A stretch of 64,000 nt of DNA from Desulfobacula sp. (lineage in GTDB: Bacteria; Desulfobacterota; Desulfobacteria; Desulfobacterales; Desulfobacteraceae). Where the stretch lies: contig JAIFMF010000116.1 in NCBI GenBank assembly GCA_020048635.1, positions 1,825-65,824 of the forward strand. The letters are read 5' to 3'. How positions within the stretch are numbered: position 1 is the first letter of the stretch; each line of letters opens with the position of its first letter. A model generated the notes under the pieces. The model was not told the origin of the DNA and ran no database searches. It was given only the letters and a program-made list of their open reading frames with translations. Position numbers and translations under genes: made by a program. Below, one piece after another: positions 44,163 to 62,003 of the stretch.

Positions 44163-44897
44163 TTACAGCCCTGTTATTTGTGCCAGCACAACAGATATAT
44201 TATCTTTTCCTCCACCGGCATTAGCCTCATTTATAAGATTCTCAGTCTTTGTTCGAATGTCTGAACTTGACTTCTCCAGGTGCTTTTTAATCAAGTCATC
44301 CGCTACCATATCGGTAAGACCGTCTGAGCAAAGCAGAAAAAGATCGCCAGGGAAGATAGTTCCTTTTAATATATCCAGGGCTGGATTTTTTTTAATTCCC
44401 ACTGCTCTTAAAATAACATTCTTAAATGAATGTCTGACAGCTTCTTCCTGAGTTATCAACCCTTGGGTCAACTGCTCCTGTACAAGGGAATGATCCGTGG
44501 TCAACTGCTTTAAAGTCCCCTTTCGGAGGCGGTATGTCCGGCTGTCACCCATGTGACCGAGGATAAAACAGTTGTCATGGAACGCCAGCAATTCTGCCGT
44601 GCATCCCATGCCTTCGCAGCCTGCAGTGCTTTCTGCATATTCTAAAATACGATCATTGGCAATCTGAAAAGTTTTTTGAACCCGATCAGATTCCCCATCC
44701 TCTGAATTTTGTATTATGGAAAAAATCTCCTGGGCGGTCTCGGCAAATATCCGGCTTGCAATATCGCCTGCTGCAGTCCCCCCAATACCATCGGCAACAA
44801 GGCAAAATTCCTTATCCTCATTGACCAGTATGGTGTCTTCATTTTTCTTTCTACAAAGCCCCTGGTCTGTTTTTCCAAACAAAAAGAATCTGTTCAT
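44163..44897 (-). CDS. PP2C-type Ser/Thr phosphatase (PppA/Stp1-like)
   Basis: TDQG..RKKNED, VADGIGG, GMGCT, HMGDSRTY, LTTDHS, LLCSDGL, GGKDNISV. Confidence 0.93.
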   Translation of the reverse strand: MNRFFLFGKTDQGLCRKKNEDTILVNEDKEFCLVADGIGGTAAGDIASRIFAETAQEIFSIIQNSEDGESDRVQKTFQIANDRILEYAESTAGCEGMGCTAELLAFHDNCFILGHMGDSRTYRLRKGTLKQLTTDHSLVQEQLTQGLITQEEAVRHSFKNVILRAVGIKKNPALDILKGTIFPGDLFLLCSDGLTDMVADDLIKKHLEKSSSDIRTKTENLINEANAGGGKDNISVVLAQITGL

Positions 44898-44898
44898 T

Positions 44899-46509
44899 TT
44901 ATTTGAATCTCTCCATCATGAATTCTACCAGATTGGATTCATCATATGCGATGTTCAAGCGTTTTCTGAGTTTTGTCAGATCATCATATATTTCTTTGCC
45001 GGACTTGTATCTCATGTCTTTATTTTTTTCGAGACATTTCATTACAATATCATTCAGCTCGTCCGGTATATCCGGTCTTAATTCAATAATAGGCGGGATG
45101 ATGAATTGGGGAATAGTGCTTAAGGCTTCTAATTCGTTGTTGAAATGATATAATTTTTTTCCGGAAAGTATTTCATAAAAGATGATACCCAGGGCATAAA
45201 AATCCGACTGGTGATCGGTCTCTTTCCCCAAAGCCTGCTCAGGTGAAAGATAGGATAATTTCCCCTTGATCACACCTGCCTGAGTAAAACTGGGTTCGGA
45301 CCGGGCCTTGGAAATTCCAAAATCGCTTATCTTAACCTCGCCCTTAAAGGATATCAGCATATTCTGAGGACTGATATCCCGATGAACAATATTCAACGGT
45401 TCCTGCGTGTCCTCACTTTTTTTTGTATGAGAGTAGTAAAGGCCTGCACTGATTTTCTGGATTAAAAATATTGAAAGGTCAACAGGCAGGCCTTGTTTTT
45501 CATGGGCCATGATCTCCGCAAGATTTTTTCCTTCAACATATTCCATTGCAATAAAACTTGCATTATTTATTTTGATCAAATCAAAGATTTGTACAATGTT
45601 TGGGTGTTGAAGCATTGCTGCAAGTCTAGCTTCTCGTACAAACATATCAACAAAACTCTGATTCTGGGATAGATGAGGAAGTATTTTTTTTATGGCAACG
45701 GTTCTTCTGAAACCATCTTGCCGAATGTGGTCCGCAAGGTACAATTCAGCCATTCCGCCCTGGGCAAGTTTTTTTGTCAACAGATAAGGGCCGACTTTAT
45801 TGGTTTTTTCGAATTCTTCAAGTGCTCTCGCTCTTTTTTTTCTGATCACCCTGTCGGTAACCACTAAAGCGCCCATAAAGATAATACAGTTTACTATCCA
45901 CAAACTCAAAAGCAGGGCATTGTATTTTTCAAGCGGCATATCCAGTTCCCGGGCATCCAGTCCAAAAATAAGCTTACCTATTTTTATCTGAGAAAAAACA
46001 ATGTCGCTTGTGAAGCTGATGATGATGCTTTTATGATACTCTCTTCGTTCTATTGAAAGAGTATCTGTTGTTTTTAATATTTCAACACTGTTGGAAGGCA
46101 TGTATTGATCACCAATAGCGTTCGGGTCACTATGGGCAATGATAACCCCATCATGATCCAGAATGGCAGTAAAAACCGGCTTGTTTTTTTTCCCCAGCTC
46201 TCCTATTGCAACATTTAAAGTGAGAATATCTTTTTCCAGTAAAGGGGCATTGATTTTTTCACCCATATTATTTGCAGCCTGAATTCCGTTGTTAAAAAAA
46301 TCATTCCGGTATTTTTCCTGGAAATTTCGAATAAACCCGTGGCCAGCCAAAGACAGCAGAAAAAAAGCCACCAGGTAAATCAATAGAGGGTTTTTATTTC
46401 TGCTGATGAATTCATTTTTCATCATTCTTCCTATAAAACCGGCAGGCAGTCCGGTCGCCACTTTTTTGGCCCATGTGATGGTTGTTGATACTTTTTCACC
46501 GACAGACAT
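44899..46509 (-). CDS. Membrane Ser/Thr protein kinase: TM, extracytoplasmic sensor, TM, C-terminal kinase
   Basis: LAQGGMAELY, VAIKKI, HRDISPQN, DFG, GKLSYLSPEQ, all intact. Confidence 0.92.
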   Translation of the reverse strand: MSVGEKVSTTITWAKKVATGLPAGFIGRMMKNEFISRNKNPLLIYLVAFFLLSLAGHGFIRNFQEKYRNDFFNNGIQAANNMGEKINAPLLEKDILTLNVAIGELGKKNKPVFTAILDHDGVIIAHSDPNAIGDQYMPSNSVEILKTTDTLSIERREYHKSIIISFTSDIVFSQIKIGKLIFGLDARELDMPLEKYNALLLSLWIVNCIIFMGALVVTDRVIRKKRARALEEFEKTNKVGPYLLTKKLAQGGMAELYLADHIRQDGFRRTVAIKKILPHLSQNQSFVDMFVREARLAAMLQHPNIVQIFDLIKINNASFIAMEYVEGKNLAEIMAHEKQGLPVDLSIFLIQKISAGLYYSHTKKSEDTQEPLNIVHRDISPQNMLISFKGEVKISDFGISKARSEPSFTQAGVIKGKLSYLSPEQALGKETDHQSDFYALGIIFYEILSGKKLYHFNNELEALSTIPQFIIPPIIELRPDIPDELNDIVMKCLEKNKDMRYKSGKEIYDDLTKLRKRLNIAYDESNLVEFMMERFK

Positions 46510-46542
46510 AATTGTTCTCCAATAAACAATACAATAATATTT

Positions 46543-47400
46543 TTAATCAGCCGCAATTTTATTTATTATTTTAGTGCACTGGGCGACCATAAGTCTTTTA
46601 AGCCAACTTAATTCTTCAACCTTTGATAGATCTGAGAGTAACACGGAAGGATTGACCCCGGGATACTGCTTAAGAACAGAAAATTTTTCAAGATCAGGTG
46701 TACGAAACCGGTTCTTAGAAAAATTTTCATGTTTGCCGCACAACGGGCAAAAAAATTCAGTATCCTCAGAATCAGGAGACACAGGGTTTTGGGGAGACTT
46801 GAAATTTGTCGCCAGGATTGGCCACCGGAGGCGAAAATCCTTGTAATTCGTAATTCCAAAGAAAAGAACAATGACCAGTAGACTCAGCCCTGCAAACAGG
46901 AAAAAATTGTGTTGTAATTGGCCGATATTTCCCGCAGAAAGTGATATCAAAACTTCTCCGACCTTGGTACTGGAAAAAGTTACTTCAGAAGAAAAAGTCA
47001 TTCCCCGCTGGTTATTCGGCTGGGTAACCCGCCAGTAGTGAACATCATCCAGAACGCCCGATTTCTTTCTATTGAGGGTGAAAAATTGCTCTTGATCAGT
47101 GTAGGCAATGATTTTATTTTTATGATCAATAATCGATGCAAAAACTACCTCAGGTTTTTCTGTAATCTTGTCTATGAGTCTGCTCAGACGATTTATATCT
47201 CTCTCCAAAAGAAGCAGCCCTGACTGGCTGGAAATATCTTTTGATATGGAAACCCCTGTCTTGATTAACGCCTGCCTGCGATTCCTCTCCCAGATATTGA
47301 TGAAGATATAAATAAGCAAACAGAGAACAAACCACGCAACCAGAATCAGTATGATTTTTTTTCCAGAAAGTTGAAAAGAACTTTTTTCGCTTGTCATCAT
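46543..47400 (-). CDS. Membrane protein with a Cache-like extracytoplasmic domain paralogous to the adjacent kinase, plus a cytoplasmic CxxC tail
   Basis: LLLERDINRL...VFASIIDHKNKIIAYTD...FSSEVTFSSTKVG aligns with the kinase LLEKDILTL...VFTAILDHDGVIIAHSD...FTSDIVFSQIKIG; FFCPLCG. Confidence 0.7.
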   Translation of the reverse strand: MMTSEKSSFQLSGKKIILILVAWFVLCLLIYIFINIWERNRRQALIKTGVSISKDISSQSGLLLLERDINRLSRLIDKITEKPEVVFASIIDHKNKIIAYTDQEQFFTLNRKKSGVLDDVHYWRVTQPNNQRGMTFSSEVTFSSTKVGEVLISLSAGNIGQLQHNFFLFAGLSLLVIVLFFGITNYKDFRLRWPILATNFKSPQNPVSPDSEDTEFFCPLCGKHENFSKNRFRTPDLEKFSVLKQYPGVNPSVLLSDLSKVEELSWLKRLMVAQCTKIINKIAAD

Positions 47401-47678
47401 AGAAAATTGTATCCTCCCGGAAGTGCCTGGATCATGACGCCTGAATGATAATGGCGTCGGTTTATAATCAAAATGGAAAAAATGATAAAAAATTGTCAAT
47501 GGATTTGACCTATATAAAAAAAGTCTTTATGTCAAGCTGCTTATCAAAATTTAGAATAATTTGACCAGAGAAAATAGAACAAGACTTTTTTAACAAAATA
47601 TCCTTGCATTAAAATGGGATATGATATTAAAAAAGGACATAAAACTTTTAATAAATTTTCTTTAAGGCTGTGGGAGAA

Positions 47679-48929
47679 ATGAAAATGAATAAAATACTCA
47701 CCGTAACAATTTTATTGACATTGTTGATTTCCGGATGTGTTGAAACTTCTGTAAAGCCGGAGCCCCCACCTCAAGAATTAAGTCTTACGCAGCAACACAT
47801 GATAAAAGGAGAAACTTTAGAGAGAGAAAACCGATTGCTCAACGCCCTGGAACAATATCGGCTGGCCCTTTCCCTTGATCCTGGAAATGAGCAGGCAATT
47901 CAACATGAAAAAAGGGTTTCGTCTTTGCTCTGGGAGCAAGCGCAGCCGTATTATATGAAAGGATTGGAATTAGAACGTAAAGGACAATATGAACCCGCTA
48001 AATCAGAGTATTTAAATGCCCTGCAGATCTGGCCGGAGCATGAAGAGGTAAAAAAAAGAGTAGCGCTTCTTGAGGAAAAGGGAAAAGAACCGGATTATAT
48101 AGTTCATATACTGACATCGGGTGAACTTCTTTCGAAACTTGGAAAGGTCTACTATGGAGATACGAAGAAGTATACACTTATTACAGAATTTAATTCTATT
48201 AAAGATGTTACAAGGGTCCGAGAAGGAGAAAAATTGAAAATACCGATTATCGCAGGTGTTTCTCTCCAGGATCTTAAAAAGAAACAAGAAGAGTATCTCA
48301 ATTTGAAAAAAAATGAGGCTTCGGCGGCCAAAATCAAAAAGGCCAATGATGAGATAACCGCAACGTCAGGCGAAACGGCTGCTGAGCCTGAAACGATGGT
48401 GCCATCCGCCGAAAAAGCCATAGTACCCAATAAAGATGCTGTAAAAGGGATCACTCAGGAGAATATTTTGCCATCTTCTAAGAGTGATCCCTATGTGCAG
48501 GGAATAGAGCTGTTTAACCAGAAAAAATTCTCAGCATCCATTCCCCTGTTTCTGTCGGCAGCAAAAGATAATCCAGGCAATGAAACTATCCGTGATTATC
48601 TTTTCAAGGCGCATTTTCAACAGGCATTGGTATTGTTTAATGCAGAGGACTACCTGTCGGCAAAAGACAATTTTGAATCAGCGCTCAAATATGACAAAAA
48701 ATGTGAAAAATGTTCGGATTATATTGAAAAATGTGAAACGACCTATAAGGAGAAGCACTATAATCTGGGCATCCATTATTTTGGGAAGGAGCAATTGAAA
48801 AAGGCAATTGAAGAATGGGAACTGGTGAAAAAGATTGACCCTGGTTATAAAGAGCTGGCCCCGAATATGCAAAAAGCGGAAATGCTGCTTAAAAGACTTG
48901 AAAGTATAAAAAAGAGTAAGTCTGAATGA
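47679..48929 (+). CDS. Lipoprotein with TPR repeats and a LysM domain
   Basis: Lipobox LISGC; TPRs (AL.LDPGNEQA; AI..WE.V..IDP.Y); LysM HILTSGELLSKLGKVYYGD...I.EFN.I......GEKLKIP. Confidence 0.82.
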   Translation: MKMNKILTVTILLTLLISGCVETSVKPEPPPQELSLTQQHMIKGETLERENRLLNALEQYRLALSLDPGNEQAIQHEKRVSSLLWEQAQPYYMKGLELERKGQYEPAKSEYLNALQIWPEHEEVKKRVALLEEKGKEPDYIVHILTSGELLSKLGKVYYGDTKKYTLITEFNSIKDVTRVREGEKLKIPIIAGVSLQDLKKKQEEYLNLKKNEASAAKIKKANDEITATSGETAAEPETMVPSAEKAIVPNKDAVKGITQENILPSSKSDPYVQGIELFNQKKFSASIPLFLSAAKDNPGNETIRDYLFKAHFQQALVLFNAEDYLSAKDNFESALKYDKKCEKCSDYIEKCETTYKEKHYNLGIHYFGKEQLKKAIEEWELVKKIDPGYKELAPNMQKAEMLLKRLESIKKSKSE

Positions 48930-49801
48930 AACAGCCTGCAAAAATAATTGTCCAGCTTGTACATATCCATGGCGCCCTGAAAGGAAAAATTCAGGGGTTT
49001 TCCGGTCATGAAATCACCATTGGCCGCAATTCATCCTGTGATCTTCAGTTTCCCCAGGATCTTGTTGTTATCTCACGAAAGCATGCCACCATTGTCAGGG
49101 AAGGAAACCGATTTAAAATAGTCGACCAGAGCACCAATGGAACTTTTGTCAATGGCGAAAGGATAACCGAGGCCTATTTAAAAAACGGTGATGTGATCTT
49201 TTTCACCCAGGACGGACCCAAGGTCAGTTTTCTGACCCAGGTTGATGAGACATCTGATATCCTGACGCCTTCATTTCCCCTGCCGGAGCTTGATACTGAT
49301 AAAACGCCCATTCAATCAGTGCTCCATCAGCCGGTGACTGAACCCCAGGCAGTACCTCCACAATCCGTGTATCACATCGAAACCACCAAAGTTCCCCTGA
49401 TAGTCCAATATGGGCCTGTTCTGAAAGCCTTTAATGAACTTCCCATTACCCTTGGGTCTGATAATACCTGCGATCTGGTATTGGATCACCCTTCATTGGC
49501 CGGTCAGCATGTTCAAATTTTTTTCAGCCAGGGGAGCTACAGGGTTAAGGATCTTACCGGTCGCAACCCGGTTCTGATAAACAGCCAGCCGATCATTTCT
49601 CCTTCCCCTTTAATGCCTGGCGATCAGCTTTTCCTTACATCCAATGGGCCTGCGTTTCATTTTCTGGAAGGCGGTCGTATGGCTGAAATAAACATGCCGC
49701 AAAAAGAGGCGGCCAGTGACAGTGGAAGCACAGCACCCCGAAAAAGCGAGGAGCCTTCGAAGAAGAAAAGTGGTTCCTTGTTTAAAAAGCTTTTTCGGTA
49801 A
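48926..49801 (+). CDS. Protein with two FHA domains
   Basis: FHA1: IGRNSSCD, ISRKHA, DQSTNGTFVNG; FHA2 degenerate: LGSD..CDL, GQHV, DL..RNPV.IN; Pro-rich linker. Confidence 0.88.
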   Translation: MKQPAKIIVQLVHIHGALKGKIQGFSGHEITIGRNSSCDLQFPQDLVVISRKHATIVREGNRFKIVDQSTNGTFVNGERITEAYLKNGDVIFFTQDGPKVSFLTQVDETSDILTPSFPLPELDTDKTPIQSVLHQPVTEPQAVPPQSVYHIETTKVPLIVQYGPVLKAFNELPITLGSDNTCDLVLDHPSLAGQHVQIFFSQGSYRVKDLTGRNPVLINSQPIISPSPLMPGDQLFLTSNGPAFHFLEGGRMAEINMPQKEAASDSGSTAPRKSEEPSKKKSGSLFKKLFR

Positions 49802-49831: not shown

Positions 49832-50962
49832 ATGATGCGCATTATTCAGATGGACGAAATCATAAAGATCAGTAAAGAACGCGCAGATAGAGAAGTCGCC
49901 TTGAGTAAAAATATTTATAACATCCTGAATGGCCCCCGGTGGCTCCCGAAAATTACTGAATTTGTTGCTACCGCCACTTACCAGCTACTCTATCACGGAT
50001 TTGATGAGGCCAAATTGAATGCTGCCATGGCAGAGGAGCCTCGCCTTGAAGTCTGGGGTAAGGGAGTCGGCAACGATTATATAGAGAAGACAAGATACCT
50101 TTGCGAGCATCGAAAGCTCCTGAATGCAGGAGACTGCTCGGATCTTATACGGCTTTTTGGAAGTTTGGTTGAGGATAAAAAACACCTTCTATCCAATAGC
50201 CAACTGGGCTATGTTGATAGAAAGAGGTTGGAAAAGCGTGTTGGAGGCGAGGAGGCTCACTGGGGAGCCTCACGGGCCAGAGGCAAGGCAGGAGAAAAAG
50301 CAAGTGAACCCCGACATGTCATTGCCGGCAGAAATAAAATGCTGGAGCAAAGGCGGCTGAAAGCTTTCAGCGGGATAACACTCACAAGATTAAAAAGAGA
50401 AAGCACGGTGAGGAAAATAGATGTCGCATTTGGATTGCCGGCTGGGTGTGATATTTCCGGAACCACGGCAGACTCTATTTTTTTTGTGGAGCTGATGAGA
50501 GATTTCATCGCCGGCGATGTCCTGGCAAGCATGAACATTACGGACAAGGATATTAAAACCATCCAATTGCTCCCCCTTGCCACCATGGTTTCCCAGGCTC
50601 ATCACACTGTTCTGGAATGCGCCTTGACCCTGACGTTGAACAGATATATGAAATACCATGCTGGCTATTATGACACGTTGATTCCCATTGGCGGTTGCGA
50701 TAGTGAAATCGAAAATATCCTGAAAGATGCCGGTAGAAGAGCTGCTGAAAGCCGATTAAATATTTTGTGTTATTTGAGTCCCAAATTAAAGTTTGAAGCA
50801 TATCAAATGATGACATATGATGAAATTGAATTGTTTAAAAAGATTGCACAGATGACCCATGACACCCTGTTGACATGGAAGGCCAGCCGGTCTCCCCTTC
50901 TTCAGGAAGAAGCGATGGCCATCACCGGAAAGGCATATCTATACCATGTAATAAAACAATAG
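49832..50962 (+). CDS. Hypothetical cytoplasmic protein; candidate T6SS effector
   Basis: No signal peptide or TM; lies directly upstream of vgrG; motifs DISGTT and HHTVLE. Confidence 0.6.
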   Translation: MMRIIQMDEIIKISKERADREVALSKNIYNILNGPRWLPKITEFVATATYQLLYHGFDEAKLNAAMAEEPRLEVWGKGVGNDYIEKTRYLCEHRKLLNAGDCSDLIRLFGSLVEDKKHLLSNSQLGYVDRKRLEKRVGGEEAHWGASRARGKAGEKASEPRHVIAGRNKMLEQRRLKAFSGITLTRLKRESTVRKIDVAFGLPAGCDISGTTADSIFFVELMRDFIAGDVLASMNITDKDIKTIQLLPLATMVSQAHHTVLECALTLTLNRYMKYHAGYYDTLIPIGGCDSEIENILKDAGRRAAESRLNILCYLSPKLKFEAYQMMTYDEIELFKKIAQMTHDTLLTWKASRSPLLQEEAMAITGKAYLYHVIKQ

Positions 50963-51003: not shown

Positions 51004-52908
51004 ATGTTAACCCAGGAAAATAAACTTTTTTCAATCAAAACACCCCTTGGCAAAGATGTTCTGCTGCTCGCCCGGTTTGGCGGCCAGGAGGTCCTGTCGG
51101 AAATTTTTCAGTTTGATATGGATTTGTTTTCCGAACATCCCTCCATTCCGTTTGAAGATATCATCGGAAAAAATGTCACGGTTTCTATTCTCCTGGCAGA
51201 TGGCAGTAAACGGTTTTTTAATGGTCTGATATCGCGTTTCAGCCGGGAATGTGCCTGCAATGAGCCTGGAGGAAGCCCCTCTTTTTTTGATTATTCCGCC
51301 ACACTGGTGCCCTGGACCTGGCTTTTGACCCGGACCTCTGATTCCCGGATATTCCAGAACCTTTCGGTGCCGGATATTGTTGAAAAAATTTTTCATGAAA
51401 AAGAGTTTTCGGATTTCAAATTCAACCTGACTGCCGCTTATCAACCAAGAGAATATACCGTTCAATACCGGGAAACGGATTTTGACTTTATTTCAAGGCT
51501 GCTGGAAGAAGAAGGGATCTATTATTTTTTTATGCACGAGGAGGGTAAACATACCCTGGTGATGGCTGATCATTCCGGAGCGAATGAGCCCTGTCGGATG
51601 CAGGAATCCGCTAAATTCAAATTGAGTGGCGGCGAGTATTTCAACCGTGGGGATCAGATTGACAGCCTTAAGATGGCAAAAGAGATCCAGGCAGGTAAAT
51701 ATACGTTAAATGATTATAATTTTAACACCCCCAATACGGATCTGAAGGTCACCACAAATACCACAATTGTCCTTGGGCCGGGTGAACGGGAAAAATATGA
51801 CTATCCCGGAGGATATTCTAAAATAGACACCGGAGACACATTAACCAAGATTCGGATGGAGCAGGAAGAATGTCGTATCACCACTTTGAGCGGTACCAGT
51901 GATTGCCGGGCCTTTGCCAGCGGCTATCGTTACAAACTGGAAGACTGTCCACAGGACGCTTGGAATAACCAGGACTATCTTTTGACCCGTATCAGACATA
52001 GGGCTGACCAGTCAGCAACCTATTTATCCGGCGTATCCGCATCAGGAAAAGGGGACATCTATAAGAACGATTTTGATTGTATTGCCCATGGGATACCCTT
52101 CAGACCCCTGCGGCGCACACCGAAACCTGTCGTTAAAGGGGTTCAGACGGCATTTGTTGTGGGTCCTAAAGGGGACGAAATCTATACCGATCCGCATGGA
52201 CGGGTGAAGGTCCAATTCCACTGGGATCGAGAGGGCCAGCACGATGGAAACAGCTCCTGCTGGCTGCGGGTCAGTCAATCCATGGCAGGTAACGGCTGGG
52301 GGGCAATGGTTCTGCCCAGGGTTGGACATGAAGTCATTGTCGAGTTCATCGAAGGTAATCCGGATCGGCCCATCATCACAGGTCAGGTGTATCACGCCAT
52401 CAACCGGCCACCCTATCAATTATCCGATGAAAAAACCAAGAGCACGTTCAAATCAAACAGTTCTCCCGGCGGCGGCGGGTTCAACGAATTCCGCTTTGAG
52501 GACAAAAAGGGTCAAGAGCAGATTTTCATCCATGCCGAGAAAAATCAGGATATCCGGATAAAAAACGATCAATGCGAATGGGTTGGCAATGAACGTCATT
52601 TGACCGTGGTGGGCGATCAACTTGAGAAAACCGGTGGAGATAAGCATATCACGATCATAGGGGACCGCAACGAAAGAATAGGGATGAAATATGTTCTTGA
52701 TGCGGGAGAGGAAATCCATCTGAAAGGGGGGGTAAAGGTCATCGTCGAGTCAAGCATGCAGATATCTCTCAAGGTCGGCGGCAATTTCATTGATATCCTA
52801 CCCTCCGGTATCTCCATCCAGGGGGTTATGGTGAATATCAACAGTGGCGGCTCACCTGGATCAGGTTCAGGATCATCGCCAAAGATGCCAAAGGAGCCCT
52901 CCACATGA
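51004..52908 (+). CDS. vgrG: T6SS spike protein VgrG (TssI), without a C-terminal effector extension
   Basis: VQYRETDFDFISRLLEEEGIYYFF, GRVKVQFHWDR, WLRVSQ..AG..WG...LPRVGHEV.V.F.EGNPDRP, IHAEKN. Confidence 0.96.
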   Translation: MLTQENKLFSIKTPLGKDVLLLARFGGQEVLSEIFQFDMDLFSEHPSIPFEDIIGKNVTVSILLADGSKRFFNGLISRFSRECACNEPGGSPSFFDYSATLVPWTWLLTRTSDSRIFQNLSVPDIVEKIFHEKEFSDFKFNLTAAYQPREYTVQYRETDFDFISRLLEEEGIYYFFMHEEGKHTLVMADHSGANEPCRMQESAKFKLSGGEYFNRGDQIDSLKMAKEIQAGKYTLNDYNFNTPNTDLKVTTNTTIVLGPGEREKYDYPGGYSKIDTGDTLTKIRMEQEECRITTLSGTSDCRAFASGYRYKLEDCPQDAWNNQDYLLTRIRHRADQSATYLSGVSASGKGDIYKNDFDCIAHGIPFRPLRRTPKPVVKGVQTAFVVGPKGDEIYTDPHGRVKVQFHWDREGQHDGNSSCWLRVSQSMAGNGWGAMVLPRVGHEVIVEFIEGNPDRPIITGQVYHAINRPPYQLSDEKTKSTFKSNSSPGGGGFNEFRFEDKKGQEQIFIHAEKNQDIRIKNDQCEWVGNERHLTVVGDQLEKTGGDKHITIIGDRNERIGMKYVLDAGEEIHLKGGVKVIVESSMQISLKVGGNFIDILPSGISIQGVMVNINSGGSPGSGSGSSPKMPKEPST

Positions 52909-52940
52909 AGCAGAATCAGAGCAACAGGGAATAAAAGAAA

Positions 52941-53345
52941 ATGTCGATGCAGGTATGTATGGGGGCAATGCTGAAATGCAGTTTTGGCCTGGCACCAAGC
53001 GCATTTGTGGTGACACCGGAGAAGGGGGTGGTAACGACTACACCCGCTGCAAATATCATGGATCAAGTCCCCATGAAGAACATCATGCCCTTTGGCATGT
53101 GCACGACCCAGTCAAACCCGGCCGTGGCGGCGGCTACCTCGGCAGCCACCGCAGCAGCGAGTGGCGTTTATACCCCAGCGCCGGCTCCCTGCTTACCGGC
53201 AACAACGTCTCCCTGGGTTCCCGGATCACCAACAATGCGCATCGCCGGTCAGCCAGCATTAAACGACACATCAATCTTACAATGTGCCTATGGGGGTGTC
53301 ATTTCAGTGATAAGTCCGGGACAATTTCAGGTCCAGATTCCTTAG
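52941..53345 (+). CDS. DUF4280 PAAR-like spike-tip protein
   Basis: VCMGA.LKCSFG, NIMPFGMC, C.PAT..PW.PG, C.YGG.I; follows vgrG. Confidence 0.9.
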   Translation: MSMQVCMGAMLKCSFGLAPSAFVVTPEKGVVTTTPAANIMDQVPMKNIMPFGMCTTQSNPAVAAATSAATAAASGVYTPAPAPCLPATTSPWVPGSPTMRIAGQPALNDTSILQCAYGGVISVISPGQFQVQIP

Positions 53346-53362
53346 CAACAGCAGCCAATTTA

Positions 53363-56011
53363 TTAAATGAAAAGATATTTAAAACCTTCTCCATCCATAT
53401 CCACTTCAATCTTTTTGACAGGCTCTCCCTTGGCCATCATTGAGAGCATCTCACGACTCATTTCCGGAAGCAGGGTATTGGTCAGAATATGGTCCACATT
53501 CCTTGCCCCGCTATCCACTTCTGTGCAGCGCTGAGCAATGGCATCAATAACCGTCTCTTCATAAACAAATTCAACCTGCCGGTTTTCTTTCATCCTTTTT
53601 TTAATTTTGTCCAATTTAAGCTGAATGATGCGCTTCATATTGTCATCCGTAATAGGAAAATAGGGAACAATTTTCATACGGCCGAGAAAAGCTGGTTTAA
53701 AATGGGCTTGAAGGTCCGGGCGTAGCATCTCTGTAAGTGTTTCAGGGTCAGGAAGGCTTTGTTTATCTCTGCATAGTTTCATGATCAGATCGGTTCCCAG
53801 ATTTGAGGTGAGAATGATCAAGGTGTTTTTAAAATCAATGACACGTCCCTCTCCGTCTTCCATCATGCCCTTGTCAAAAACCTGGTAGAACATCTCTGTC
53901 ACGTCGGGATGCGCTTTTTCAACCTCATCCAGAAGGACAACACTGTAAGGTCTTCTCCTGACCGCTTCCGTAAGCACGCCGCCTTCGCCGTATCCCACAT
54001 ATCCCGGCGGAGAGCCTTTGAGACTCGAAACGGTATGAGCCTCCTGGTATTCAGACATGTTGATGGTGATCATGTTTTGTTCACCACCATAGAGAAGCTC
54101 TGAAAGGGCAAGAGCAGTTTCGGTTTTTCCAACCCCGCTGGGACCGACCAGCATGAATACACCCGTGGGTTTGGAAGGATCTTCAATTCCTGCATGGGCA
54201 ATCTGAATGACTTGTTCAATGGCTTTAAGCCCGTAATCCTGACCGATAATTCGCTGTTTAAGCTGATCGCTTAACGTCAGTACGGTATCAATCTCATCGG
54301 AGAGCATGCTGCCGGTGGGGATTCCAGTCCACCCGGAGATAACACTGGAAATGGTGTCTGAATCCACTTCAATATGAACCAGAGGATCATCTTTCTGTCG
54401 TTCGATGAGTTCTGATTCAAGTTTCATCAGCTCAGTCTGCAGTGCTTCAAGTCCATCACCGGGATTTTCTTCTTCGACATGAAGGTCTTGTATCTTTTTG
54501 TGAAGATCCCGGATTTTTCCAGCTATCTCCATCTCTTTTTCCCATTGATCGGTAAGCCGGGAAAGAGTTTTTTGGGCCATCTCTTTTTCTTTTAGAATGA
54601 CAGTCATTCTTTCCTCATGGTTTTTCCCAAGGGCAGTTTCCTTTTTCAAAATAGCCATCTCACGGTTCAATTGATCAATCTGTCTGGATGCATCTTCAAC
54701 AGAAGGGGGGTTGGTTGTCAGCCCGATTGCAATTCTGGCACAGGCCGTATCCAATACACTGACGGCCTTGTCAGGAAGCTGCCGACCTGAGATATATCTT
54801 GAAGATAGACGGACGGTTTCTTTTAATGCCTCATCAGTAATCATAACCTGATGGTGTTTTTCCAGAAACGGCGCAATGGCCCTCATCATTACCAGGGCCT
54901 TTTCTTCGTCAGGTTCTTCGATCTTTACTACCTGGAAGCGTCTGGCCATGGCCGCATCTTTTTCAAAATATTTTTTATACTCTGCCCAGGTGGTGGCGGC
55001 AATCGTCCGCAGTTCACCCCTGGCAAGCGCAGGTTTCAATAGATTTGCAGCATCCCCTGATCCGGCAGCCCCGCCTGCGCCGATCAGGGTATGGGCTTCG
55101 TCAATAAATAGGATAATCGGCACAGGAGAGGCCTTCACCTCATTGATGACGGATTTTAACCGCTCTTCAAATTCACCTTTAATCCCTGCTCCGGCCTGGA
55201 GAAGACCCAGATCCAGGGTATGAATGGCAACATTTCTCAAGGCGGGCGGGACATCCCCCTGTGCAATTCTCAAGGCAAATCCTTCCACAACGGCTGTTTT
55301 CCCAACTCCGGCTTCACCGGTAAGAATGGGGTTGTTCTGCCTGCGACGAATCAGAATATCCACCATCTGTCGGATCTCAAAATCCCGGCCCAAAACAGGA
55401 TCTATTTCTCCATTTTGCGCTTTTTCGGTCAGGTTGACTGTATACAAAGCAAGGGCCTGAGACTTTCCAGCACCTGGCGTCATGGTTTTTTCCGCTTTCA
55501 GAGATCGGCTGTCCCCGATGCGCGCTTCCTCTTGTTCAGCCGATCCGGAGGTCAGATCAAAAAAAGAGGCTTTCAGAGTTTCGAGAGAAATCTTTTTGAA
55601 AAGAGAGGATGTTGAATAAAGCGCCCTTGAGGATTCCTGGCCAGATAGCAGGGCAAGAAGAATATGACCGGACCGAACAGACGGGGCGGCAAATTCAATG
55701 GATGCAAAAAGCCAGGCTTCTTTGATCATATTGGGGATTCTGGGGGAAAGGGCAGGGGTTCGTGCATTTCCTGTTTTAAAGGTCTCCATGACATCTGTGA
55801 GATCCCTGATAAGGTGGGACTCATTGATTTCAAAATAGGTCAGTATTTTTTTAAAATCCGTATTCTGAATATCTAGGAGTTTTAAGAAAAAATGCTCCAG
55901 TTCAACATCATACTGGGTATGTGAAAGGCAGAGCCCGGCCGCTGATTCCAGGCTTTTTTTACAGATCGTATTCAGTTTTCCGATAAGAGATTTAAGGTTT
56001 GATACAGGCAT
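53363..56011 (-). CDS. tssH: T6SS AAA+ ATPase ClpV
   Basis: Clp-N domain, DPVLGRD.EIRQ..DIL.RRRQNNPIL.GEAGVGKT, second Walker A GPSGVGKT, SGARNV; ATG at 56011. Confidence 0.96.
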   Translation of the reverse strand: MPVSNLKSLIGKLNTICKKSLESAAGLCLSHTQYDVELEHFFLKLLDIQNTDFKKILTYFEINESHLIRDLTDVMETFKTGNARTPALSPRIPNMIKEAWLFASIEFAAPSVRSGHILLALLSGQESSRALYSTSSLFKKISLETLKASFFDLTSGSAEQEEARIGDSRSLKAEKTMTPGAGKSQALALYTVNLTEKAQNGEIDPVLGRDFEIRQMVDILIRRRQNNPILTGEAGVGKTAVVEGFALRIAQGDVPPALRNVAIHTLDLGLLQAGAGIKGEFEERLKSVINEVKASPVPIILFIDEAHTLIGAGGAAGSGDAANLLKPALARGELRTIAATTWAEYKKYFEKDAAMARRFQVVKIEEPDEEKALVMMRAIAPFLEKHHQVMITDEALKETVRLSSRYISGRQLPDKAVSVLDTACARIAIGLTTNPPSVEDASRQIDQLNREMAILKKETALGKNHEERMTVILKEKEMAQKTLSRLTDQWEKEMEIAGKIRDLHKKIQDLHVEEENPGDGLEALQTELMKLESELIERQKDDPLVHIEVDSDTISSVISGWTGIPTGSMLSDEIDTVLTLSDQLKQRIIGQDYGLKAIEQVIQIAHAGIEDPSKPTGVFMLVGPSGVGKTETALALSELLYGGEQNMITINMSEYQEAHTVSSLKGSPPGYVGYGEGGVLTEAVRRRPYSVVLLDEVEKAHPDVTEMFYQVFDKGMMEDGEGRVIDFKNTLIILTSNLGTDLIMKLCRDKQSLPDPETLTEMLRPDLQAHFKPAFLGRMKIVPYFPITDDNMKRIIQLKLDKIKKRMKENRQVEFVYEETVIDAIAQRCTEVDSGARNVDHILTNTLLPEMSREMLSMMAKGEPVKKIEVDMDGEGFKYLFI

Positions 56012-56027
56012 ATCCACTCCTTTGAGA

Positions 56028-57086
56028 TTAAACTGTTTTTCGGGTTGATCGCTGCACATCCTGAAGATCAACTTCCTGAAACGTAATATATGGATCTTCG
56101 ATAAATGTGTATCCCGGACTGGATGCGAATGTGGTCCATCCGAGAAAAGTTGCGTCAGGACTTTTTTGGCCAAGGATACAGTTTGGCACATCTTCCTTTT
56201 TCAGAGATATTCTGATTTCAAATTCAAATTCTATTCCCACCATGTATCGGATTAAAGAGAAAACCGGGAGAAGCAGATCTCCCGTCGGCATGAATCGTTT
56301 ATAGATCTGATAGTCGGCAGGACCCAGGTTTACCCTGAATTTGGTCTGGCACTCCGTCACCTGGCTTCCGCAGACCGCATCTCCACCAAGGGTTGAATTG
56401 GCGCTGCCAAGGCGGGTCAAATCAGCGTCCTCAAAGGGGATTTCCCGCTCCACAAACTGGTCCACCTGGGTTCTTGTTCCTGAAAAATATTCGATGACCG
56501 CTTCAATGCTTGCTGCAGATGCCACGGGCAATGCGAGCAGGCCCGTGTAAAAACTGAGGGATTCCCTTGGAAGTCCCAGCATTCCCACCATTCCAGAGGT
56601 TCCAAGCCCTGAGAGGCTGAGAAGATATCGAGACAGACGGTCCCCGGCTCCGGGTGAGTAGTTTTCAGGGAACCGATGTTTTTTCCAGGCCAGATAAAAA
56701 AGGGAAATCAGTCTATGATGAAAGATATTGAGAAAATCTACAAAGGAATGATCCTTCTTCTTTTCTCTTTCTACGGCAAGTTCGTTGTACCAGTTGGGAA
56801 GAAGGCCAGAGGGACCGATCAGCCCCATAAAGGCCACTTCCATCTCCGTCCGGTTTTGATCACTGTTTTTTCTCAGACCGGAAATATCGCTGGCTGGAAA
56901 GGCAAATCCCGGCTTGACTGAAAAACGGACAGGCTCCTGGCCTGGCTCCAGAGTTTGACCCAGTTTTTTTTTGTCTGGGGCAAATTTTTCAACTAGCTCA
57001 ACAGCCTTGAAAAAAGAAAACTCATGGCATTTTTGATAGAGATCTTTTTCTATGCCAGTATCTGATTGCCGCTTCTCGGTGGCCAT
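56028..57086 (-). CDS. tssG: T6SS baseplate TssG
   Basis: FSFFKAV.L, FMGL.GPSG.LP.WY, F...FHHRL.SLFY.AW.K. Confidence 0.93.
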   Translation of the reverse strand: MATEKRQSDTGIEKDLYQKCHEFSFFKAVELVEKFAPDKKKLGQTLEPGQEPVRFSVKPGFAFPASDISGLRKNSDQNRTEMEVAFMGLIGPSGLLPNWYNELAVEREKKKDHSFVDFLNIFHHRLISLFYLAWKKHRFPENYSPGAGDRLSRYLLSLSGLGTSGMVGMLGLPRESLSFYTGLLALPVASAASIEAVIEYFSGTRTQVDQFVEREIPFEDADLTRLGSANSTLGGDAVCGSQVTECQTKFRVNLGPADYQIYKRFMPTGDLLLPVFSLIRYMVGIEFEFEIRISLKKEDVPNCILGQKSPDATFLGWTTFASSPGYTFIEDPYITFQEVDLQDVQRSTRKTV

Positions 57087-58852
57087 CTTTTGATGTCCTC
57101 TTTATTTTGAATCGTTTTTAAAACAAGCTGAGAAAATGAATTGATTGAAATATACTGGGCAAAAAACCGTTCGAGGACCGAAGCAAATAAATAGAATCCC
57201 GAACCCACAAATTTATCTTCATCCAGGGTAAGCGTTATCTCTATTCCCCGACAGAAAGACGATTTGATCCGTTTTGTAACATGACGGGAGTGCACAGACA
57301 CAATACCGTTGATCTGCTGTTTTGTGGGGGTTGAATTTTCAAAATCATAAAGCTTTAGAATTTCCTTTAATGCGTCTTCCCCACCTTCCACGATGGAGAT
57401 GTAATTGAGAGACAGGTGGGAAATAAGTCGCCACTGCAGGGCTCCCCCGAGAAAGGGGCGTTTTGTGGCCGTGGGTTTGATCAAGCAGGATATTTTTTCA
57501 ACAGGAGCGGCAAATTCCATGGTAAAATCTCCTTCTGCATCACCAAAGGGAAGCCGGGCCGGTAAATCTCTGTTGGTACAGGTCAGATGAAGGGTCAGAA
57601 TATCTGTTCCGGGATCGGTCGGGGTCATATTCAAATCAGAAAAAGACAGGTAAAGTTCTGACCCCTTATCGTCCTTCTTGCCTGACAGTCTGCGCTGAAC
57701 ATGCCAGAATATAGTGGCATCCTTTGAACCACCCTCTGAGAGATGGTGACGTATAGAATAAAAAGGCCTGTACTCTTTCACGGTTTTTCCGGAAACAGGT
57801 GCTGGGCTGACCTGGTCAATGCTATATACTTCCATTGCATGGGACCGCCTTAAATCAGGAGTCACCCGGTATTCTGTTTTTCGCTGTTCAATCCTCATGG
57901 GTTCGGCAATTTTTTTAAAAAGGTTTACGGCTGGAGCTGTGTTCAACTGAAATGTGTCCTGGTTCACAAGAATATCTTTTTTTAGGGATTTGTTCAGATG
58001 TATCTTTACGGTAAGCGATGTACCGATTTTCCTTGAATTCAATTTCTCAAATCCGGTCAAATCAAAAAAGAGAAATTTTTCTGGAAAGGTGAAATACTCA
58101 AAAAGCAGAAGATACCCTGGAAAAGATCGTTTGGAATATGGAAGCATTTTTTCATGGGGGTCAAACCCCACAGTGCGGATACAGCCCGGGTCAAGTGTGA
58201 TGATCTCAGCTTTGCCCTCTGGGTTGGTAAAGGCCATTTCCACATGGCAGACAGTATTAAAAATGAGTTCATACAATTTAAAGATATGCTGATGGGGACC
58301 ATTGAGAAAGAATCGGAGGAATGGGCATGAAACATCCCCAAAATCAATTCCATTGCAGGTCTGAAGCTCGATAACAAGGGTTTGAACCGCTTCTTTGACA
58401 TTCAGTCCTGGAGTATCAAGAAATGCGGACCGGACTGCAATCGGCCGGATGAATACGGGCTGACAAAGGGTAAATCGACAGGGGACACTCTTTACCGGTT
58501 TAGAAAAGAGAAGGGTTCCCTCCTGGATTTCAATCCCTTTTTCAGTAATGCTTTGATTTATGGGATCAAACCGCACCATGGTCATTGAGGGAATGGGATT
58601 GTTGTAATGGGGGTATGTGATCTCCATAAGGGATTCTGTGATTTCAGGAAAATCGTCATCCATCTTTTTATGAATTCTGCCACTGATAAAGGCAAAAGCT
58701 TCAATAAGCCTTTCAGTATGAGGATCTTCACATTTGTCTGGTTCCAGGAGAAGGCGGCCAGCAATTTTTGGATAATTTGCAGCAAATTCTGCCCCCATCT
58801 TCCGGATAAAGGTCAGTTCTCGTTCATAATAATTTAATAATCTGTCGTCCAT
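57050..58852 (-). CDS. tssF: T6SS baseplate TssF
   Basis: LL.YYEREL..IR..GAEFA..YPKIA.RL, DPHTERL.EAFA, YF.FPEKFLF, WRLISHLSLN. Confidence 0.95.
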   Translation of the reverse strand: MDDRLLNYYERELTFIRKMGAEFAANYPKIAGRLLLEPDKCEDPHTERLIEAFAFISGRIHKKMDDDFPEITESLMEITYPHYNNPIPSMTMVRFDPINQSITEKGIEIQEGTLLFSKPVKSVPCRFTLCQPVFIRPIAVRSAFLDTPGLNVKEAVQTLVIELQTCNGIDFGDVSCPFLRFFLNGPHQHIFKLYELIFNTVCHVEMAFTNPEGKAEIITLDPGCIRTVGFDPHEKMLPYSKRSFPGYLLLFEYFTFPEKFLFFDLTGFEKLNSRKIGTSLTVKIHLNKSLKKDILVNQDTFQLNTAPAVNLFKKIAEPMRIEQRKTEYRVTPDLRRSHAMEVYSIDQVSPAPVSGKTVKEYRPFYSIRHHLSEGGSKDATIFWHVQRRLSGKKDDKGSELYLSFSDLNMTPTDPGTDILTLHLTCTNRDLPARLPFGDAEGDFTMEFAAPVEKISCLIKPTATKRPFLGGALQWRLISHLSLNYISIVEGGEDALKEILKLYDFENSTPTKQQINGIVSVHSRHVTKRIKSSFCRGIEITLTLDEDKFVGSGFYLFASVLERFFAQYISINSFSQLVLKTIQNKEDIKRWPPRSGNQILA

Positions 58853-58875
58853 GGTTATTGGGTTTACTTTCTGTT

Positions 58876-59349
58876 CTATTTTAAGATGACATACTGACCC
58901 CGGTTCAGATCAAAAACAGTATCAAAGGAAACCGGTTCAGCCAGAGGCTCCACCATCAGGATGCCGGCGATCCTGAAAAATAACTGCCGCTTTTGGCCGG
59001 CCTGACTTTCCACCCGGACAATGGTTTTTTTCAGGCGCGGTTCAAATATGGAAATGATTTTTTCAATCTCCCGACATAATTTCTGTCTGACAAAGGAAGA
59101 TTCCGGGTTTTCCACAGTAAAGTCCCGAAGCCCGTATAAAAGAAAGGATTCCCTTGCCGCACCAAAGGAATCCGGTATTTCAACCGGGCTGCAACGGGTA
59201 TTGAGAAGATTCTCGATGTCCCTTACCACACTGTCCAATATCTGCTGTTCAGATATCACCTGATACCGGGCAGACTCATTGTTCTGTCCGGGTTCCATAT
59301 CGATGAGCCTGTCCAGTATCGATGCGGTAAGGTTGAAAGGATCATTCAT
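58876..59349 (-). CDS. tssE: T6SS baseplate TssE (gp25-like)
   Basis: SILDRLID, RD.E.LLNTR, YGL.D, FEPRL. Confidence 0.92.
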   Translation of the reverse strand: MNDPFNLTASILDRLIDMEPGQNNESARYQVISEQQILDSVVRDIENLLNTRCSPVEIPDSFGAARESFLLYGLRDFTVENPESSFVRQKLCREIEKIISIFEPRLKKTIVRVESQAGQKRQLFFRIAGILMVEPLAEPVSFDTVFDLNRGQYVILK

Positions 59350-59365
59350 ACAGGGTTAGAAGGCC

Positions 59366-59854
59366 TTATACGGCTTTATTCGCTTCAAGATCCCAGCCCG
59401 CCGGAACATTTCCAGCACTAGTTCCATCTGCTCGTTTTTGTTTGGTATAGGTCTGCTCGATCTTACCATAATTGAGTGAAATTGATTCAGTAGGCTCTCC
59501 TCCGCCTCCGCCGCCGACTGATACGGAAGTGATCACCACATTGGTCAATTTATATTCCATGTATTGTTCTTTATTTCCTCCGTACCTGTTCAGCGAAAGC
59601 AATACCTCAGTTATAGGCTTCCCAGAGGCACAGTATTTAAACAGGAGAGGTGAAGCACTGTCCATGGTTTTTACAATGCTTAAATCCTGGAAATCCGCCC
59701 TTGCCGAGGTGCCTCCCCCTACGGTTGAGGCGCTGGCAGAGGCCATCTGGGATACCCCCCAGCTAAAGGACAGAATTTCCATCCAGTCCTTGTGTTTGTC
59801 ATCCGTGCTTTCACCCTTGATGCCGTCAATCTTTAAAAAATTATCTGCTGCCAT
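59366..59854 (-). CDS. hcp: T6SS tube protein Hcp (H1-type)
   Basis: FLKIDGIKGES.D.KHKDW.EILSFSWG, K..D.ASP.L, E.ISLNYGKIE..Y, GWDL..NK. Confidence 0.96.
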   Translation of the reverse strand: MAADNFLKIDGIKGESTDDKHKDWMEILSFSWGVSQMASASASTVGGGTSARADFQDLSIVKTMDSASPLLFKYCASGKPITEVLLSLNRYGGNKEQYMEYKLTNVVITSVSVGGGGGGEPTESISLNYGKIEQTYTKQKRADGTSAGNVPAGWDLEANKAV

Positions 59855-59922
59855 TTTTTTCTCCTCTGATTTATTTTGTTTTGGCGCATGTTGCGCCTGT
59901 CTGCCTGTCTTGGGTTTTCAAA

Positions 59923-61419: not shown

Positions 61420-61453
61420 ATGGTCCCTCCTTTATATGATTGCGTGTTAACAG

Positions 61454-61960
61454 TTAATCTTTTTTTATTCCAGTTTCTCTGCCGAGTTTTTCAAGGGAAT
61501 CCGTACTGGAAATTATTTCCTGGAGCAGTTCGTCCAGCTTATCATTTCCATCCAGTTTATTCAGTAGGCCGGATAGTTTTTCCCTTGCTGCCATGAGCTT
61601 ACGGATGGGGTCAATCTGTTTTGCCACATTTTCAGGATGAAAATCTTCCAGGGCTTTAAACTTGAGTTCCACTGCCATGGCAGAATTTTCATCGGTCAGT
61701 TTGTTATCAACCCGAAAGGCAAGTCTAGGGTTCATTCCCTCGAGAACTTTGTTAAAATTATCCCGATCAATCTCAACCAGTTTTCTTTCTTTAAGCTTGG
61801 GTAAGGGTTTTTCCGGTTTCCCTGACAAATCCGCCAGAACCCCAACAACAAAAGGAATTTCCTTTTTTTCAATGCTGTCGCCGACTTCAACGTCATAGGT
61901 GATCTGAACCCTTGGGGATCTTACCCTGTCCAGGGTATGCTGCAGGCTTTCTTTTGCCAT
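61454..61960 (-). CDS. tssB: T6SS sheath small subunit TssB (VipA)
   Basis: RVR.PRVQITYDVE.G....K E.PFVVGVLADLSG, IDRDNF. Confidence 0.97.
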   Translation of the reverse strand: MAKESLQHTLDRVRSPRVQITYDVEVGDSIEKKEIPFVVGVLADLSGKPEKPLPKLKERKLVEIDRDNFNKVLEGMNPRLAFRVDNKLTDENSAMAVELKFKALEDFHPENVAKQIDPIRKLMAAREKLSGLLNKLDGNDKLDELLQEIISSTDSLEKLGRETGIKKD

Positions 61961-62003
61961 TTTTGCCTCCTTTGGTTATGTATGGTTGATTTTAATATTG
62001 TTA

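Follow-up and report, generated by a model that had tools for sequence, protein, structure and literature searches.

A kinase-less sensor protein encoded with a receptor-type Ser/Thr kinase beside a type VI secretion system in Desulfobacula

A 64,000-nt stretch of contig JAIFMF010000116.1 from Desulfobacula sp. (assembly GCA_020048635.1), referred to here as the window, encodes a receptor-type Hanks Ser/Thr kinase (STK), a kinase-less membrane protein with a related periplasmic domain (PARA) and a PP2C Ser/Thr phosphatase. The three genes form one operon next to the genes of a type VI secretion system (T6SS). We propose, with moderate confidence, that this operon acts together with neighboring genes for a TPR-LysM lipoprotein and a double-FHA protein as a post-translational threonine-phosphorylation switch of the adjacent T6SS in a subset of the Desulfobacteraceae, and that PARA is its accessory sensor subunit.

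The operon and its two related sensors

The genes follow one another head to tail on the minus strand, with PARA at 46543-47400, STK at 44899-46509 and PP2C at 44163-44897. PARA and STK are separated by 33 nt that contain a GGAG ribosome-binding site, and PP2C starts 1 nt past the STK stop codon. Near-identical contigs from four freshwater metatranscriptome runs show that the genes are co-transcribed. One contig (44810-46728) crosses both junctions and takes in PP2C, the entire STK and the 3' end of PARA; further contigs span 45857-46924 and 46462-47460. None of the four runs has a contig over the divergent intergenic region at 47461-47673; this gap speaks for RNA rather than contaminating DNA as the source of the signal, and it places both transcription starts. 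The RNA contigs end at 47443-47460 for the minus-strand operon and begin at 47674-47698 for the plus-strand operon. A scan for sigma-70 promoters and terminators gave counts at chance level and is uninformative. The open reading frame (ORF) list starts PARA at a TTG codon (47499), which we reject because the homologues are about 285 aa long and the RNA contigs stop short of it; the start of PARA is the ATG at 47400.

STK (536 aa) consists of an N-terminal cytoplasmic peptide, a first transmembrane (TM) helix, an sCache-like sensor, a second TM helix and the kinase domain, as laid out in its AlphaFold2 (AF2) model. Its hydrophobic helices (residues ~42-62 and 199-221) enclose a domain of 125 residues. 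Basic residues stand on both cytoplasmic sides, with SRNKN ahead of TM1 and RKKRAR behind TM2, and this puts the sensor outside the cell. The Pkinase domain (PF00069, E = 8.9e-40) follows at residues 244-502 (45004-45780, minus strand). Helices, basic flanks and Pkinase position together bear out the TM-sensor-TM-kinase order, the reverse of that in PpkA, which a first-pass annotation of the sequence had described. The catalytic residues K274, E293, HRD376-378, N383 and DFG396-398 are invariant in 21 orthologues, and by these intact motifs STK is predicted to be an active Hanks kinase. The 536-aa frame is correct, and the N-terminal peptide MSVxEKxSTTITWAKQ is kept in most orthologues. It belongs to a Thr-rich cytoplasmic segment formed by residues 1-38 (46395-46509), which could serve for autophosphorylation and FHA docking in place of the juxtamembrane sites of STKs with N-terminal kinase domains. 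The phosphatase downstream (244 aa, Stp1/PppA-like) passes the Stp1 equivalog NF033484 with 231.9 bits against a cut-off of 230.

PARA (285 aa) has its N-terminus inside the cell, followed by TM1, a periplasmic sCache-like domain, TM2 and a cytoplasmic tail with a CPxC motif; this assignment draws on the ORF, the homologues, the RNA 5' ends and the AF2 model. In PARA as in STK, the two hydrophobic helices carry basic residues on the cytoplasmic side, so that the domain common to both proteins faces the periplasm.

The first-pass annotation had pointed to an alignable sensor in the gene just upstream of the kinase, and the similarity indeed extends far beyond chance in both pairwise and profile alignments. 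PARA residues 49-189 align with STK residues 42-186 by BLASTP (E = 1e-13, 26% identity over 145 residues). When a profile of 19 PARA sequences is compared with one of 21 STK sequences, hhalign returns a probability of 99.1% (E = 5.5e-19) over TM1 and the whole periplasmic domain. The sensor of PARA comprises residues 41-160 (46921-47280, minus strand), with a PDC/single-Cache fold and the near-invariant motif SIIDHKNKIIAYTDQ; that of STK comprises residues 67-190 (45940-46311, minus strand), and its homology to the former is seen with BLASTP, hhalign and Pfam. The Pfam matches themselves stay below the gathering score. For sCache_3_2 (PF17203, cut-off 28.4 bits), STK reaches 18.2 bits (E = 0.0028) and PARA 16.2, PARA scores 20.2 bits with sCache_4 (cut-off 22.1), and matches to CHASE8 likewise fall under the threshold.

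The AF2 models have the same layout in both proteins, in which a TM helix, a long helix, a short helix, a sheet of five to six strands and a TM helix follow one another, with pLDDT values of 80-92 over the sensors. As modeled, both adopt the PDC fold, with a long N-terminal helix, a short helix and a five-stranded antiparallel sheet between the TM helices. Foldseek matches the PARA model to the sensors of WalK/YycG, CitA, DctB, KinD and the LapD orthologue CdgS9 (probability 1.00, E = 2e-7 to 1e-3), with the WalK sensor as the top structural match. A profile of the sensor alignment finds nothing significant among PDB sequences, and it is the fold comparison alone that revealed this relationship.

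A joint profile of both sensors collects 992 relatives among 1.84 billion representative proteins. They include PARA-type proteins of ~285-295 aa with CPxC, STKs with the sensor at the N-terminus and the kinase at the C-terminus (~500-548 aa), STKs built in the opposite order (kinase-TM-sCache_3_2-TM-HAMP), and histidine kinases and adenylate cyclases with sCache_3_2 plus HAMP. PF17203 scores above its cut-off in eight of ten such relatives and just below it in another (P0205, 27.8 bits), while the tenth has no match. The presence of sCache_3_2 in these proteins identifies the PARA/STK domain as a divergent branch of this family. Residues common to both sensor families (PLLE, DH, F, G) look structural.

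The maximum-likelihood tree places the PARA sensors in one clade (support 100/99) and 26 of 27 STK sensors in another (91/89). The tree is unrooted, and the histidine-kinase, cyclase and kinase-N sensors join it at the node between these two clades. Outside its own family, PARA is nearest to the STK sensors, with a mean BLAST score of 54 bits compared with 45 (histidine kinases) and 36. The STK sensor, for its part, is about as close to the nearest histidine-kinase/cyclase sensors (56 bits) as it is to PARA. An origin of PARA by duplication of the STK sensor could not be shown, since the tree meets at one node and the bit scores do not single out the STK-PARA pair. The statement in the first-pass annotation that the two proteins have the same sensor domain thus stands for family (divergent sCache_3_2) and fold, but not for the sequences, which are only 21-26% identical and no closer to each other than STK is to histidine kinases. 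The two sensors are best read as members of one family that differentiated long ago, and their ligand need not be a common one.

The PARA family comprises 87 proteins, all unnamed or hypothetical, and is undescribed. The cytoplasmic tail of PARA (residues 196-285; 46546-46815, minus strand) contains a CPLC knuckle at residues 218-221 (46738-46749), a distal Cys275 and a C-terminal amphipathic helix. Among 19 homologues, C218, P219 and C221 never vary and C275 hardly does, which agrees with the CxxC-bearing tail of the first-pass annotation. AF2 confidence for the tail is low. Searches of Pfam, NCBIfam and PDB gave no significant match to it; the PDB profile matches amount to weak zinc-knuckle noise (best E = 0.0065). 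A known-domain identity is rejected on this ground, and a zinc ribbon also because it would need four conserved metal ligands in two knuckles: C218, C221 and C275 are conserved, with no fourth conserved Cys or His. We also reject a CD4/Lck-style zinc site common to PARA and STK, because STK has no conserved cytoplasmic Cys pair and conserves only C492, inside the kinase fold. In Desulfotignum, the natural PARA orthologues (~206 aa) consist of TM-sensor-TM alone. This genus can thus do without the tail, and the core function of PARA would reside in the TM-sensor-TM portion, at the membrane or in the periplasm, where STK could be met.

Conservation, selection and the type VI secretion context

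Each of the 23 loci fetched with the PARA profile has the STK sensor directly downstream on the same strand. PP2C follows STK wherever the contig reaches, except in the distant metagenome lineage L036, where it lies ~4 kb further on. In a survey of the family, 30 of 161 genomes carry the module (either gene), and PARA and STK are adjacent, ~1 kb apart, in 28 of these. Absence of co-conservation, named in the first-pass annotation as what would speak against the pairing, is therefore not what we observe. An even sample of the phylum (401 genomes) contains the pair only in the window's own genome; the pair is common in, and largely confined to, the Desulfobacteraceae and close neighbors. In another distant metagenome lineage (L033-35), the module is complete and PARA overlaps STK by 4 bp.

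PARA is a working protein under purifying selection, and no other extracytoplasmic element of the module is as constrained as its periplasmic domain. Mean pairwise identity is 54.7% for the PARA sensor and 48.7% for the STK sensor, with 74.7% for the kinase domain and 30.5% for the PARA tail. Across nine close pairs, dN/dS is 0.04-0.21 for the PARA sensor, below the STK-sensor value in seven of the nine, and 0.16-0.59 for the PARA tail. With such values for the sensor and intact frames in 28 genomes, PARA cannot be regarded as a decaying duplicate or pseudogene. The strong constraint on the ectodomain favors an active role in sensing or partner binding over that of a passive decoy. In a mirror-tree comparison, the distance matrices of the two sensors correlate with r = 0.93, and with a partial r of 0.59-0.73 once PP2C or the kinase domain is controlled for, which supports co-evolution of PARA and STK weakly, the correlation being confounded by the shared phylogeny of the locus. 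The two proteins may pair physically.

The T6SS genes of the window (vgrG, DUF4280/PAAR-like, clpV, tssG, tssF, tssE, hcp, tssC, tssB, tssA and tagF) occupy 51004-63969. The vgrG and DUF4280/PAAR-like genes diverge from PARA together with the TPR-LysM and FHA genes, and clpV through tagF are on the other strand. The same contig continues past the window with tssM, tssL, tssK and tssJ, so that the T6SS is complete; its core genes are 4.5-19 kb from STK. TssL is a short DotU-only protein of 224 aa that lacks a peptidoglycan-binding domain. Across the family, TssC is found in 24 of the 30 module genomes compared with 27 of the 131 without the module (odds ratio 15.4, p = 1.5e-9), and the distance from module to tssC is 5-48 kb in 13 of the 14 cases where both are on the same contig. 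All 14 genomes with a TssC of at least 470 bits, which is the T6SS type of the window, carry the module. The T6SS link is strong but not obligate.

According to a 2026 review, the TagE kinase, the TagG phosphatase and the FHA protein TagH form the minimal T6SS phosphorylation set, and the upstream activators of this core vary by lineage, with TagQRST in Pseudomonas and RtkS in Serratia (PMC13584744). Two features of that pathway are present here, an intact Hanks kinase beside a T6SS and an adjacent PP2C gene. The PpkA architecture is absent, the order being reversed, and so is a TagH-type FHA protein; TagR, TagS and TagT were not seen in the cluster. The module reads as the threonine-phosphorylation arm of the adjacent T6SS, and this context, which explains most about the module, was missing from the first-pass annotation.

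Two further members of the module are transcribed divergently from the operon. The TPR-LysM-TPR lipoprotein (47670-48929, plus strand; lipobox LISGC) is a candidate periplasmic or peptidoglycan-bound partner, and its gene is kept beside PARA in nearly all loci. The double-FHA protein (291 aa; 48926-49801, plus strand) matches PF00498 in two stretches (E = 1.1e-34) and is a probable phosphothreonine reader.

Proposed role of PARA and its alternatives

In the reading that we consider most likely, PARA would be a dedicated accessory sensor subunit of STK. The two proteins would associate in the inner membrane through their TM helices, their periplasmic domains or both; PDC sensors form dimers through the TM helices and the long sensor helix, and it may be there that PARA and STK meet. 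PARA would set or bias the dimerization and autophosphorylation of STK, in an activating or an inhibiting direction, a role that we liken to that of TagQRST for PpkA in Pseudomonas and of RtkS in Serratia. Activated STK would then phosphorylate threonine on itself, on the linker of the FHA protein or on a membrane or baseplate component of the T6SS. The canonical first FHA domain would read the phosphothreonine mark, T6SS assembly would be licensed and PP2C would turn the switch back, with tagF as the usual antagonist. The LysM lipoprotein next door, a deacetylase gene in relatives and the short TssL suggest that the cue may be related to peptidoglycan or to the envelope.

Several observations weigh against this proposal. 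Contact between PARA and STK is inferred, and the mirror-tree correlation suffers from the confounding noted above. Some genomes have one partner only. G443, a complete closed genome without TssC, keeps an intact PARA together with the polysaccharide deacetylase and TPR-LysM genes and has no STK, PP2C or FHA gene at the locus. Conversely, G546 keeps STK-PP2C and TPR-LysM without PARA, and L036 has a sensor-STK with TPR and FHA genes, again without PARA, which indicates that STK can work without it. It follows that neither protein strictly depends on the other, and an independent role of PARA as well as a broader one in envelope signaling stay live. The FHA protein lacks the TagH C-terminal domain and scores 75.4 bits with TIGR03354 (cut-off 120.25). 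Finally, six of the 30 module genomes have no TssC, and L033-35 has no T6SS gene within 8 kb.

In a more specific form, which we put forward only tentatively, PARA and STK would make up a receptor-kinase/co-receptor heteromer in which a periplasmic cue is detected primarily by PARA, whose ectodomain is the more constrained one. The most plausible such cue would be damage to the cell wall, with the TPR-LysM lipoprotein (and the deacetylase in relatives) as the relay. Its binding would change the proportion of PARA:STK to STK:STK assemblies and in this way gate threonine phosphorylation and T6SS firing. If true, this would be the first description of a kinase-less co-receptor for a bacterial Hanks-type kinase and the third independent solution to T6SS input after TagQRST and RtkS.

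One of the closest known systems is the PpkA-PppA-Fha1 pathway of the Pseudomonas aeruginosa H1-T6SS with its TagQRST input. There, too, the T6SS genes are accompanied by those for a Hanks kinase, a PP2C phosphatase, an FHA protein and TagF, the kinase sits in the membrane and has a periplasmic domain, and an outer-membrane lipoprotein contributes to the input (TagQ there, the candidate TPR-LysM lipoprotein here). PpkA, however, has an N-terminal kinase, one TM helix and a periplasmic VWA domain, whereas STK is TM-sCache-TM followed by a C-terminal kinase. The FHA protein of the window differs in having two FHA domains and no TagH C-terminal domain, and PARA has no counterpart in Pseudomonas. 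In Serratia marcescens, RtkS is a lineage-specific accessory protein on the periplasmic side of the T6SS kinase PpkA, where it replaces TagQR. RtkS is soluble, periplasmic and unrelated to the kinase, unlike PARA, which has two TM helices and is homologous to the kinase's own sensor. RtkS and TagR are thus periplasmic inputs as PARA would be, but with unrelated folds.

Kinase control by accessory membrane proteins is also known outside secretion. In Firmicutes, the extracytoplasmic single-Cache kinase WalK is controlled by the co-transcribed membrane proteins YycH and YycI via contacts at the membrane level; WalK is a histidine kinase, though, with a sensor that is not paralogous to YycH or YycI, and there is no link to secretion. 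In group A Streptococcus, the catalytically dead membrane relative RocA binds the sensor kinase CovS and tunes its output (PMC6635533, PMC7028121). The proposed PARA-STK pair resembles it in setting a kinase-inactive membrane relative beside a kinase. RocA nevertheless retains a kinase domain in degenerate form and is part of a two-component system, whereas PARA has no kinase domain at all and its partner would be a Hanks kinase. Plant receptor-like kinases and receptor-like proteins, and the TGF-beta receptor with BAMBI, likewise combine a receptor kinase with a kinase-less membrane protein of related ectodomain in a co-receptor or decoy logic. The resemblance is one of analogy only, since the ectodomains have no common ancestry with those of PARA and STK and the eukaryotic proteins, which have a signal peptide, cross the membrane once instead of forming two-TM hairpins.

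A search of the literature on Desulfobacteraceae T6SS kinases and on kinase-less or pseudoreceptor partners of Hanks kinases found no described equivalent, and a review of T6SS accessory genes has no entry like PARA or a sensor-N kinase (PMC13584744). The locus would represent a third, unrelated T6SS input design, found in strictly anaerobic sulfate reducers and combining a reversed kinase topology, a Cache sensor and a conserved sensor-only relative. To our knowledge, the decisions of when and where a T6SS fires have been worked out in only a few Proteobacteria, and it is the core that is conserved while the inputs vary with lineage. Should PARA and STK interact, they would form a bacterial counterpart of receptor-kinase/co-receptor signaling for Hanks kinases, and a compact two-gene system for Cache control of a Ser/Thr kinase that dispenses with HAMP. 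The 87-member family of hypothetical proteins would gain a functional context, and because two cultured strains, Desulfobacter curvatus DSM 3379 and Desulfospira joergensenii DSM 10085, carry the module, the hypothesis is testable. The locus fetched from D. curvatus (L008) has neither an FHA nor a T6SS gene within 10 kb, whereas FHA, hcp and vgrG genes are near the module in D. joergensenii (L019).

PARA might instead be an inhibitory decoy with a dominant-negative effect, an explanation that we consider unlikely. By analogy with BAMBI, a heterodimer with PARA would hold the STK kinase monomeric and inactive until a periplasmic cue frees STK to homodimerize. Hanks kinases such as PpkA are activated by dimerization (PMC13584744), and PARA offers the dimer-forming parts (TM1, the long N-terminal sensor helix and TM2) without a catalytic domain; the Desulfotignum orthologues are reduced to exactly these parts. 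An STK without PARA, as in L036 and G546, is also what an added brake would lead one to expect. The two sensors, however, have diverged to the low identity given above, and the periplasmic domain of PARA is more constrained than that of STK, which fits specific binding and not the mere occupancy of an interface. A decoy had been offered in the first-pass annotation, and its passive form becomes improbable given the stronger purifying selection on the PARA sensor.

We also think it unlikely that PARA is independent of STK. In that case, it would act together with TPR-LysM (and the deacetylase in relatives) as a component of the periplasm or facing the peptidoglycan, and might anchor or position the T6SS membrane complex, sharing an operon with the kinase because both serve one machine. 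TssL of the DotU-only form would fit such a role, as the peptidoglycan-binding accessory proteins TagL and TagN compensate for this kind of TssL in other T6SSs (PMC13584744), and the conserved CPxC...C of the tail suggests a separate cytoplasmic partner. The retention of PARA, deacetylase and TPR-LysM in G443 after the loss of STK, PP2C, FHA and TssC points the same way, but this is a single genome that may hold the remnant of a recent deletion. Same-strand adjacency to STK is nearly universal, the closest relatives of PARA outside its family are STK sensors, and the tail is dispensable in Desulfotignum, all of which argue against independence.

That the whole module (FHA, TPR-LysM, deacetylase, PARA, STK and PP2C) serves general cell-envelope or peptidoglycan-stress signaling, with T6SS adjacency as a secondary matter, is quite improbable: L033-35 encodes it with a trypsin-like protease, a Pkinase-PEGA kinase and an AhpC/TSA-TPR protein, three of the six TssC-free module genomes are at least 96% complete, and the LysM and deacetylase genes point to peptidoglycan, but the T6SS association in the family is strong both statistically and by position, every genome with the window's type of TssC has the module, kinase, PP2C and FHA are the recognized minimal T6SS phosphorylation set (PMC13584744), and tagF, a known antagonist of that pathway, lies in the same cluster.

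Neighboring genes and further observations

The gene for the TPR-LysM lipoprotein stays beside PARA even in the kinase-less genome G443. As the plus-strand RNA contigs begin at 47674-47698, the GTG at 47670 is a less likely start than the ATG at 47679 or the one at 47685. Many relatives have a gene for a polysaccharide (peptidoglycan-type) deacetylase between PARA and TPR-LysM (L031:7539-8552, L032:6574-7665, L033:6513-7511). The window lacks this gene, and only 270 bp separate PARA from TPR-LysM there. Distant modules run on past PP2C (L020:13497-16780, L033:11234-15387) with a second Hanks kinase carrying PEGA and an AhpC/TSA-TPR protein, and in L033 also with the trypsin-like protease.

On the same contig, ~6-7 kb past the end of the window and beside tssJ, an ORF of 243 aa (L029:7096-7827) has a sub-threshold match to T6SS_FHA_C (21.5 bits against 23.7) and no FHA domain. 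Since T6SS_FHA_C is exactly what the double-FHA protein lacks, TagH may be split in two here, and binding of phosphothreonine might bring its parts together again.

Three other sensor proteins of the same genome have remote sCache_3_2-like domains by the joint profile (E = 3e-7 to 2e-3). They are encoded in the 13105-15003 region of the window and on contigs C31 and C29, and one of them is a 632-aa kinase of an upstream signaling operon in the window.

The ORF that follows the FHA gene (376 aa, 49832-50962) has no family match. At this position, in the interval between FHA and vgrG ~5 kb from the kinase, relatives encode a second, divergent TssB/TssC-like pair with ~200-230 bits to VipB, seen at L002:4540-5541, L004:4766-5599 and L020:2018-3475 and in G480 and G552.

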